Assembly: GCA_013239625.1 (NCBI GenBank)
Contig: MU055549.1
Coordinates: 682,001 to 746,000, forward strand
Direction of reading: 5' to 3'
Origin: Lama guanicoe
Lineage: Eukaryota
Length of the DNA: 64,000 bases
In this document: one piece after another, positions 9,301 to 20,706 of the stretch
Position numbering within the stretch: position 1 is the first letter of the stretch
Layout: the number at the start of each line of letters is the position of its first letter
Position numbers and translations under genes: made by a program
The notes under the pieces: generated by a model
Told to the model about the DNA's origin: nothing
Seen by the model: the letters and a program-made list of their open reading frames with translations, nothing else
Database searches by the model: none

Positions 9301-12300
9301 GGGTGCCGCCTCAGAGCAGACAGGGGGGCTACGTCGCCTCGCTGGCCAGCAGGTGCCACAGGTGTGGGGAGGGGCAGGCGTTGTGGTGCGCAGGGATGGG
9401 GGCGGGCGGGGGGCTCGGCCTGAAAGCCGACTCTGACCCCCGGAGGCCCGGGCCAGCCGAGTGACCGGCTGTGAGCGTGTGAAGGTCAGAGCTGTTTCCT
9501 CCGATGCTGCTCTTGCCCGGAAACCTGCATCTCAGATGCCGGCGCCGTGTGCTGAATGAGCTCCTGTCTGGGCTGAACCGCACGGTTCACGGGACGGGAG
9601 ACGTGCACAGGCTCTTGGGGAACAGAAGCCCGGGCTCCGTCCCGTCTGCCTCTGCTGAAAACCTCTCCTGGAGGCGTCCCCACCGGCCTCTGAGCCGCTG
9701 GTCCGGGTGTGGGTGGGAGAGAACAGGGCCGAGGGGCTTCGATCCGGCCCCTCTGACCTGTTTCCGACAGGAAAGGAGGCGGAGCGGACAGACACGCGCA
9801 TTTCCCAGGTTTCCCCGTGGGTCAGAGCAGCCTGACTCAGTGCGTCCGCGTCCGTGCCGGGCCTCTGCCCCCGTCCCGGCAAGACAGCCCCCAGCAGTGA
9901 GCCGTGGATTTTGGCGCCTTTGCCTTTCAGAGCACACATCCCCGCAGCTGTGGCAGATCCGGGAAAACCCAAGGGCAAAGACAAGGAGAGGAAGGCGTCC
10001 CTGCCCCAGGGTGAGTGGGGCCCAGGCCCGCTGACCACAGAGCCATCTGCCCCGCACTTGTGGCTGGGCCTCCCCCCGGCGTAGGGACCGTGGCCACTGA
10101 CCAGCGCCCTGGGTGTGCTGCAAGCCACTCCAATTCAGATGCCCTGCCCTTCCGGGCACCCGGGCGGCCCCTCGTGGACAGAAACCATGGTGACATGGCC
10201 ATCACCACCCTGAGCACACATCAGATGACAGGAGGGCCAAGGGGCCTCCCAGATTAGCACTTTGTTGACTCCCAAATAAAAGATGAAATGCTCCTGTTCT
10301 GGCCGTCCTGGGCAGAAGCACCCCCTACAGGGCTGAGCTGCCGCCGTCTCCAAGGTGCCAGCAAAGCTCAGAGCTGGCGCGTGGATCCCAGCAGAGCGTG
10401 GGTCCCGGTGGAGCGCGTGGATCCCGGGGGAGCGTGGGTCCCGGCGGAGCGTGGCACGCGGGTCCTAGCGACCTCTGGGTCCCTCAGAGCTGAGCTTGTG
10501 CAGCTGTCACGAACCTGACAACCTGGGGCCACTTTTGTGACCTGAGATTATGCCCCCAAAACTCCCCAGATGAAGACCCATGCTGGGTTTTAGGTAACTT
10601 GTGTTTACTTTGTAAACACAGTCAGTTCCATTGAAGTGTCTCGGGTTTCACCCATCACCGGAGCAGGGCTTCTCTGTGGTCACGGGAGAAGCTGCCACTG
10701 CCCTTCCTCTGCAGGAGCTGCCCTGTCAGAGGCCACGGCCCCTCTGGACCCTCAGGGAGGGGATCTGGCACAGATCTTTGTCCTTTGAAAGGGCTCCCTG
10801 GTCAGGAGGCGCGATGGCACCTCCAGGACCTGCCTCAGGAAGCACCCAGGACCCGACGTCCTTGTGACCGGGCTCTGTCCAGGTCCATGCTGTGACCTGG
10901 CCACACCACCAGATCAAGCACCTGCCCGCCAGGGGGCTTGGCCATGTCTGGGAGCCATGCCGAGTCCAGACTCCGTCAGCCAGACGGCCTCGGCAGTGCC
11001 GGGCAGACCCTGGGCCGTCGGCCCGTCCCCGTGCCGGTGACCTCAGCCACGTGCTCCGCCCACAGCGCAGCCCGAGGTCGCGGACAGCATCGTGCTGGCC
11101 GTGGACCGGCCCCTCCTGGAGCTGCCACTTGAAGGGCTCCCCGTGTTCGGTGAAGGGACGATCTCCTCCGTGTCTCGAGAATTTTCTCTCCAGATGCTGT
11201 GGACGCGGCTCCGCACAGAGACAGGTGAGCGCCACACTGACGCTTGGATCTTACGTGGGAATATTTAAATGACATTCACCATAAAAGAATGTAAGTCTTG
11301 TCAAAAAACAGTTACCAGATTCGCCACGTCTTTCGAGGCGCTGGTCATTCAGAGACATCTCGGGAGCACCTGCCATGTGCCGCGTGTCCCGTGGGTGCCG
11401 AGCACACCCTGGAAAGAAGCTTAACGTCCTCTCGGCCTCACAAACTCCTGTTTCAAAGGAGGGGTGACGGTAAACTGGCAGCTGCCCAGTGAGTCGGCCG
11501 TTACGCGGTGAGGGCCTGACTCAGCCTGGGGGCACTGGGGACTCGGGGTCATGTCCTGTGACACAGATGTGCCCGGAGTGTGAAAACGCTCTGCCCTCGA
11601 CCTACCTGCAGTTTCCTTCGTGCTTGTGGCCCTAGTAAGTATCAACTTAAATAAAAGACAAATGGATCAGACAGTTTTCATCCAAGCTGAGCTGACAGGG
11701 ACCAAGGCTGCCCTTCCAGCTGGAACAGCCACAATCCAGACAAAACACAGGGAGCAACAGCCTTCACGTCCCAGAGCCCAGGCGCTGGGGGCAGCGGCCC
11801 CGAGAGGGCAGAAAGCCGTGGGCCCCCGCTCTCCGCCTGGAAGGAGTCTGCAGGCCACAGCGTGTGCTGGGAGGGGACCAGGCAGAGCCCGGGGGTCTCC
11901 CCAAGGGGAGGAGGTGGGGGTCTGGGGGCCCAGGTGACTGGGGTTTGCAGGGCAGGTCCTGGGCGGGGAGGCTGCAGATGGTCCCCTCAGGTCTTCAGTG
12001 GACAGCCGGTCAGCACGGGTGTGTGCAGAGACCACTCCCGGGTGCTGGTCCAGGGACCAGAGGGTGTCTCCTCTGCACCAGGGAGACTGGCTTTAGTCCC
12101 AGTGAACAGAACTTAAAAATAAGCCCCAAGGCATCAAATTATTTCCAGGCAACTGGACTGCATCTCGAAACAAAGCTCGGGGTACAGAAGTAACACAACG
12201 TCCAGGACCCAACACGGTGAACTCAAAACGTCTGACATCCAATCGAAAATCACTGGCATGCGAGGGCCCAGGGGCGACACAGGGGACAGTCAACGGCACT

Positions 12301-20706: not shown

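Follow-up and report, generated by a model that had tools for sequence, protein, structure and literature searches.

The 64,000-nucleotide stretch of Lama guanicoe DNA analysed here (the window) raises the question of whether the C-terminus of CFAP46, a structural protein of the central apparatus in beating cilia and sperm tails, is a protease domain that has lost its catalytic residues. Separase, the enzyme to which it was compared, is the protease that frees sister chromosomes; it cleaves kleisin after ExxR and is inhibited by securin. The original prediction read the last exons of the gene as a catalytically dead separase/CHAT (clan CD) domain. Evidence in support of this homology came from profile searches, from AlphaFold models of two orthologues and from an orthologue survey. 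The clan CD assignment stands, with two amendments: the domain is nearer to separase than to CHAT, and the homologous region also includes an upstream pseudo-protease half (about 2670-11224).

The gene was identified as CFAP46, on the plus strand. The first exon of the 11066-20706 block matched mouse CFAP46 (9ijj_A, E 2.2e-8), and 96% identity was observed between a window exon and camel CFAP46. The ten 3'-most exons, with AG acceptors and GT donors, could be joined into a single predicted frame of 315 residues closed by a TGA (20704-20706). The same exon joins were found in other mammals, in the proteins P0004 and P0007 from short Logan contigs. Nine further exons, starting at 164, were located 5' of this block by tblastn and splice check, and extended the predicted frame to 723 residues with acceptor 9035; the gene itself begins upstream of the window. 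The length of 717 residues first proposed for the spliced peptide could not be reproduced. Acceptor 9035 gives 723 residues and a downstream acceptor for the same exon would give about 711-712 by arithmetic, a difference that arises because alternative in-frame acceptors exist and that is immaterial to the homology. Three such candidates (9035, 9068 and 9071) were found in the region 8657-9195, and a downstream one is favoured by the orthologues. The coordinates of all features are collected in Table 1.

Table 1. Exons, intron and single residues of CFAP46 in the window, with the evidence for each
Feature	Positions	Strand	Basis
Four exons, end of the TPR-like helical solenoid	164-352, 1866-2000, 2069-2248, 2670-2840	+	tblastn, splice check, P0005 model
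Five exons, three-strand sheet and helical hairpin, equivalent of the separase pseudo-protease	7171-7268, 7697-7773, 8527-8657, about 9035/9071-9195, 9931-10010	+	P0005 model, tblastn mapping
Ten last exons	11066-11224, 16025-16095, 16198-16258, 16329-16364, 16767-16869, 17645-17757, 18789-18870, 19503-19639, 19721-19783, 20582-20706	+	
Exon with IVLAVD...LPLEGL and VSREFS	11066-11224	+	C50 E 0.0029
Four exons: basic low-confidence loop, FMVDP strand, helix, WAGHLG strand	16025-16095, 16198-16258, 16329-16364, 16767-16869	+	
70-nt U12-type intron (minor spliceosome donor and branch-point consensus)	16259-16328	+	sequence
Met at the separase catalytic-His position	17700-17702	+	in exon 17645-17757; profile register
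Asp two residues before the Cys site	18812-18814	+	column counts
Thr at the separase catalytic-Cys position	18818-18820	+	in exon 18789-18870; hhalign
Extended segment past the Cys site, containing the 18870/19503 join	18821-19563	+	length comparison, P0007 model
Exon with ANQW motif; Ala 19612-19614 at the separase P1-Arg-binding Asp position	19503-19639	+	
Last two exons, terminal VLYGLP strand and stop	19721-19783, 20582-20706	+	

Some other features of the window were recorded. A variant signal at 21165 was the only polyadenylation-like hexamer within 1.8 kb 3' of the stop codon. Downstream of CFAP46, a homeodomain exon was detected on the plus strand at 40892-41716 (PF00046, E 1.4e-10), which is probably NKX6-2 from its synteny with CFAP46. 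A GC-rich stretch of about 100 bases was seen by eye in two tandem copies at 17140-17370, in the intron 5' of the exon that carries the His site. The U12-type intron interrupts the FMVDP strand, and its donor was the sole plus-strand U12 donor match in the window. Several database proteins (P0001, P0018 and P0026) show extra or wrong residues precisely at the equivalent join, an error that would follow if a conserved minor intron were overlooked in annotation. Mouse Cfap46 is listed among minor-intron genes or genes of interest in the accessible text of PMC12956336.

All eight motifs of the original prediction were found in the order given there: IVLAVD (11089), VSREFS (11170), FMVDP (across 16258/16329), WAGHLG (16835), FFFYGME (17685), VLLDLT (18803), ANQW (19579) and VLYGLP (20671). 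Taken alone, the exon segment 11068-11223 matched Peptidase_C50 with an E-value of 0.0029. It was the only one of six single exons with any Pfam match, the other five being too short to give one. At the level of whole proteins, Pfam C50 was matched by all 13 mammalian CFAP46 proteins, two of them above the curated cut-off, and PF03568 scored above the cut-off in three of six long orthologues. A search of 1.84 billion representatives produced 811 matches at E ≤ 0.001, and the analysis used the best 150; the named sources among these best 150 included a priapulid, a schistosome, a choanoflagellate, Chromosphaera, Mesostigma, Diphylleia and Mataza. Among 63 diverse orthologues, 38 matched Pfam C50 and six matched CHAT at E ≤ 0.01, the best E-value with the CHAT profile (PF12770) being 2.5e-6. 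Very divergent homologues (P0177, P0187, P0157 and P0154) were found with the C-terminal profile. No clear Trypanosoma brucei homologue of FAP46 is reported in the available text of PMC12154619.

When the CFAP46-family profile was searched against the PDB, only CFAP46/FAP46 and ten separase sequences scored below an E-value of 0.3, the separases at 2.5e-9 to 1.6e-5. Alignment by hhalign with a separase profile (vertebrate only; 85 separases of at least 400 residues, thinned to 65) extended over 323 columns, with a probability of 98.3%, an E-value of 1.9e-14 and a score of 115. In the controls, 30 column-shuffled profiles reached at most a probability of 0.43% and a score of 20, and the reversed profile gave 0.17%. 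Deeper sampling of the family was needed for this result, as a mammal-only CFAP46 profile gave just E 1.3-1.6 against separase. CFAP46 showed no match to a single ESPL1 exon (probability 0.05), whereas it did match the multi-sequence separase profile. When the guanaco genome itself was scanned exon by exon with PF03568, only ESPL1 exons were detected and the CFAP46 locus was not picked up. In the ESM Atlas the top match was a separase cluster (0.96, 173 of 256 features). Strongly conserved CFAP46 columns (at least 80%) numbered 34, and in 19 of them the residue was identical to that of separase, a pattern that agrees with selection acting on the fold and on a small number of new surface residues.

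The residue register between CFAP46 and separase was taken from the profile alignments. For the counts, 195 proteins were aligned and rows without a residue at the site in question were dropped (49 for His, 54-55 for Cys); the non-redundant CFAP46 sets comprised 79 or 70 rows. The Met predicted at the catalytic-His site is present, and its register was given by the PDB profile search and hhalign and scored best of five offsets. A Leu does sit at 18815-18817, as had been stated, but its reading as the counterpart of the catalytic Cys was wrong. The equivalent residue is the Thr one codon later, with an offset score of 9.2 versus 0.44 for the Leu. Among the 195 aligned proteins, a sampling that reached the best 150 of the 811 matches, His in register was found in none of 146 CFAP46 orthologues, versus 65 of 65 separases, and Cys in register in two of 141 (P0128 and P0154); at the Leu position, Cys was absent from all 140 rows.

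His and Cys together were found in none of the 135 orthologue rows of this sample that span both sites, even when one to two positions of slack were allowed, while all 65 separases possess both. The predicted loss of the dyad was thereby upheld, and it follows that this loss is old and extends across the family. It was observed in animals, a choanoflagellate, an ichthyosporean, green algae, Diphylleia and others. The ESPL1 exon of the same guanaco genome retains intact His and Cys motifs. A migrated dyad was also sought by column conservation. No His column exceeded 34%, and the sole common Cys (60 of 79 rows) aligned with a Cys of separase that lies where the strand begins and is non-catalytic. 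Significant profile and fold matches were thus accompanied by no strongly conserved His elsewhere in the domain, the two points on which the original prediction had been staked beforehand.

The fold was evaluated with AlphaFold models of two mammalian orthologues, P0007 and P0005, which stand in for the window peptide and are 72-76% identical to the window domain (76% for P0007). The P0007 model (320 residues, pLDDT 88.6) was matched by Foldseek to CFAP46 first, then to separases (E 4.6e-10 to 8.6e-8), and after these to CHAT (from 1.8e-4) and gingipain. Against 48,161 chains, the top match was separase 5fc2_B of C. thermophilum (Z 20.6, rmsd 3.3, 232 residues aligned), tied with FAP46 itself at Z 20.0. 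Lower matches comprised gingipains (Z 17.0 and 15.7), CHAT (11.5-12.7) and legumain, metacaspases and caspases (6-9, with caspases at about 7). A clan CD pseudoprotease keeps the fold and lacks the dyad, and this is what was found across the CFAP46 family.

The longer P0005 model (1181 residues, pLDDT 80.7) displayed helical repeats (16-709), a three-strand sheet with a helical hairpin, and then the caspase fold. The part equivalent to the pseudo-protease consists of strands 714-721, 727-734 and 754-759 and helices 762-792 and 807-829. Residues 615-1181 aligned to the whole protease domain of C. thermophilum separase (1697-2216) with a Z of 33.0 and an rmsd of 3.5 over 347 residues, so the homology starts several exons upstream of 11066. 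With the bacterial TPR-CHAT protein Csx29 the Z was at most 22.4. The solenoid matched LGN-type TPRs (Z about 17) and also resembled generic TPRs and APC5; PF25439 and TPR matches were obtained in the orthologues. No rigid superposition of the N-terminal solenoid on full-length separases was achieved (rmsd 9.5-18 Å), and homology of the two N-terminal solenoids is plausible.

Based on these results, the CFAP46 tail is probably an ancient dead paralogue of separase, with its fold reused as an axonemal scaffold. A gene for a TPR and caspase-fold protease would have been duplicated very early in eukaryotes; one duplicate would have stayed the cohesin protease and the other would have lost catalysis. 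Packing of the domain against its own solenoid and against neighbouring proteins may be what preserved the fold. Most likely it acts as a stable cap and docking surface. The shape of the old groove would be altered by the helical extension past the Cys site and by the acidic residue that precedes this site.

Alternatively, the dead domain may still grip a basic side chain of a central-apparatus linker in the old groove, leaving it uncut, in the way that separase holds securin or its substrate. This reading, drawn from residue conservation, is possible but rather unlikely. It is favoured by two acidic residues. The Glu at 11131-11133 corresponds to that of the separase LPWE motif, modelled as a P1-Arg anchor in separase (accessible text of PMC4626109); 75 of 76 non-redundant orthologues retain it. 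The Asp that precedes the Cys site by two residues was present in 124 of 140 rows, or in 70 of 79 once redundancy was removed, and is specific to CFAP46, separase having Phe or Met there (Phe in 62 of 65). Asp462 of MALT1 presumably occupies the same position. That Asp, at the end of the pre-Cys strand, is a P1-Arg anchor too, according to the accessible text of PMC4626109. In addition, the mouse map shows unassigned link density beside CFAP46, LRRC43, SPAG6 and CFAP74, as described in the available parts of PMC12297659 and bioRxiv 2024.08.06.606614. On the other hand, the P1-binding Asp that follows the NLW strand of separase (D2151 in C. thermophilum; accessible text of PMC9729208) and the acidic motif before it are both unconserved in CFAP46. 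In that column Asp was found in 34 of 34 separases, while CFAP46 is variable (Ala 20, Arg 14 and Ser 7 of 70 rows) and the window has Ala. Moreover, the segment after the Cys site has 37 residues in CFAP46 versus 24 in separase. These 13 extra residues belong to a segment predicted as helical (helices 199-209 and 214-218 of the P0007 model), and the conserved Asp may just cap or hold that helix.

It is less probable still that CFAP46 and separase arose separately, CFAP46 from a bacterial-type TPR-CHAT protein, the likeness of the two then being that of sister offshoots. The layout is common to both, and the 1181-residue model matched such proteins with a Z of 19-22 and E-values down to 4e-7. 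The CHAT matches among the orthologues, six in number, point the same way, and CHAT clusters (0.92) made up the majority of ESM Atlas matches by count. However, separase came clearly first by every measure, and the PDB profile search contained no CHAT chain at E ≤ 10. Descent as a separase paralogue, rather than as an independent TPR-CHAT descendant, is likely on these similarity ranks. A working active site, kept in some lineage or rebuilt, is very improbable on a survey that reached the best 150 of the 811 matches: the proteins found with an in-register Cys (Chlamydomonas FAP46, P0128 and P0154) all lack the His, which is Val in Chlamydomonas, the one row with a His, one position off, lacks the Cys, and the column conservation described above reveals neither a His column above 34% nor a catalytic role for the common Cys.

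A broader reading can be composed from the dead-paralogue origin and groove binding. CFAP46 would be a full-length dead twin of separase, older than the last eukaryotic common ancestor, and would tie the protease of chromosome segregation to the way in which the 9+2 central apparatus arose. A rebuilt acidic pocket in CFAP46 would clamp a basic linker of a C1d neighbour as separase holds securin. Taken jointly, these propositions are improbable.

The placement of CFAP46 in the axoneme is known from several studies. In their available text, CFAP46 is a subunit of C1d needed for normal ciliary transport, C1d is mainly helical and braces the PF16 scaffold (bioRxiv 2022.01.23.477438), and CFAP46 contacts SPAG6, LRRC43 and CFAP74 (PMC12297659). 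For a PCD patient, the accessible text of PMC11651342 describes a CFAP46 splice variant with truncation at Glu2429 and absence of CFAP46 from the axoneme. A Glu codon interrupted after one base, with Met as the next residue, would place Glu2429 at the homologue of the 16364/16767 junction, inside the domain. The protein loss in this patient may be due to mRNA decay instead of a need for the domain. The human reference CFAP46 (2715 residues) has 286 residues past Glu2429, by the available text of PMC11651342, versus about 208 past the matching Glu in the conserved ending (P0004). Judging from these lengths, the human reference may have a non-conserved C-terminus without the last strands, and this, if so, would be part of the reason that the domain escaped notice.

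Pfam C50 is machine-attached to some CFAP46 records, and the link is thus already visible in databases. A published statement of CFAP46-separase homology was not found in the literature search, which covered sources other than subscription journals. In the accessible text of bioRxiv 2022.01.23.477438, PMC12154619, PMC12297659 (including part of its supplement), PMC11651342 and bioRxiv 2024.08.06.606614, no protease term is tied to CFAP46. In the available portions of bioRxiv 2022.01.23.477438, PMC12297659 and PMC11651342, the protein is called helical or is assigned two coiled coils, and a protease-like domain is not named. The present proposal can be checked on three public cryo-EM models. 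It would give a PCD gene a defined C-terminal domain for the reading of variants, and the published splice variant likely cuts inside it. To our knowledge, animals are generally regarded as lacking a separase paralogue. A dead second member with the separase layout, placed in the ciliary central apparatus, would offer a handle on the early eukaryotic evolution of both machines.

Within the CFAP46/FAP46/TTC40 family (PF25439 at the N-terminus), the window gene is an ordinary member, orthologous by sequence to mouse CFAP46 and Chlamydomonas FAP46, with no difference at the gene level. Dead caspase-fold modules are known from the Raptor N-terminal domain and the protease-like domain of c-FLIP, where the clan CD fold serves as a binding or scaffold module without catalysis. 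These scored a Z of 6.6 and 5.9 in the fold search; in contrast to CFAP46 they belong to the caspase/metacaspase side, lack a separase-type pseudo-protease half and are non-ciliary. The TPR-CHAT proteases (Csx29/Craspase, SAVED-CHAT and DdvA; PF12770) share a TPR solenoid and a caspase-fold module, with the Z values given above for the domain and for the long model. They differ in being prokaryotic, in scoring below separase and in keeping the dyad, according to the accessible text of PMC9729208 and PMC11506125. Separase (ESPL1/Esp1/Cut1; PF03568, C50) is the closest in architecture, with a helical solenoid, a pseudo-protease half and a caspase-fold half at the extreme C-terminus. The motifs and their order are alike, and both proteins end a few residues past the terminal strand (VLYGLP in CFAP46). 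The differences lie in the missing His-Cys dyad and P1-Arg Asp, in the longer helical segment that follows the Cys site and the Asp in place of Phe/Met at Cys-2, and in the role of a fixed axonemal subunit as opposed to a cell-cycle enzyme. Without the dyad and the P1 Asp, CFAP46 falls outside the separase family, although it has the build of a separase.
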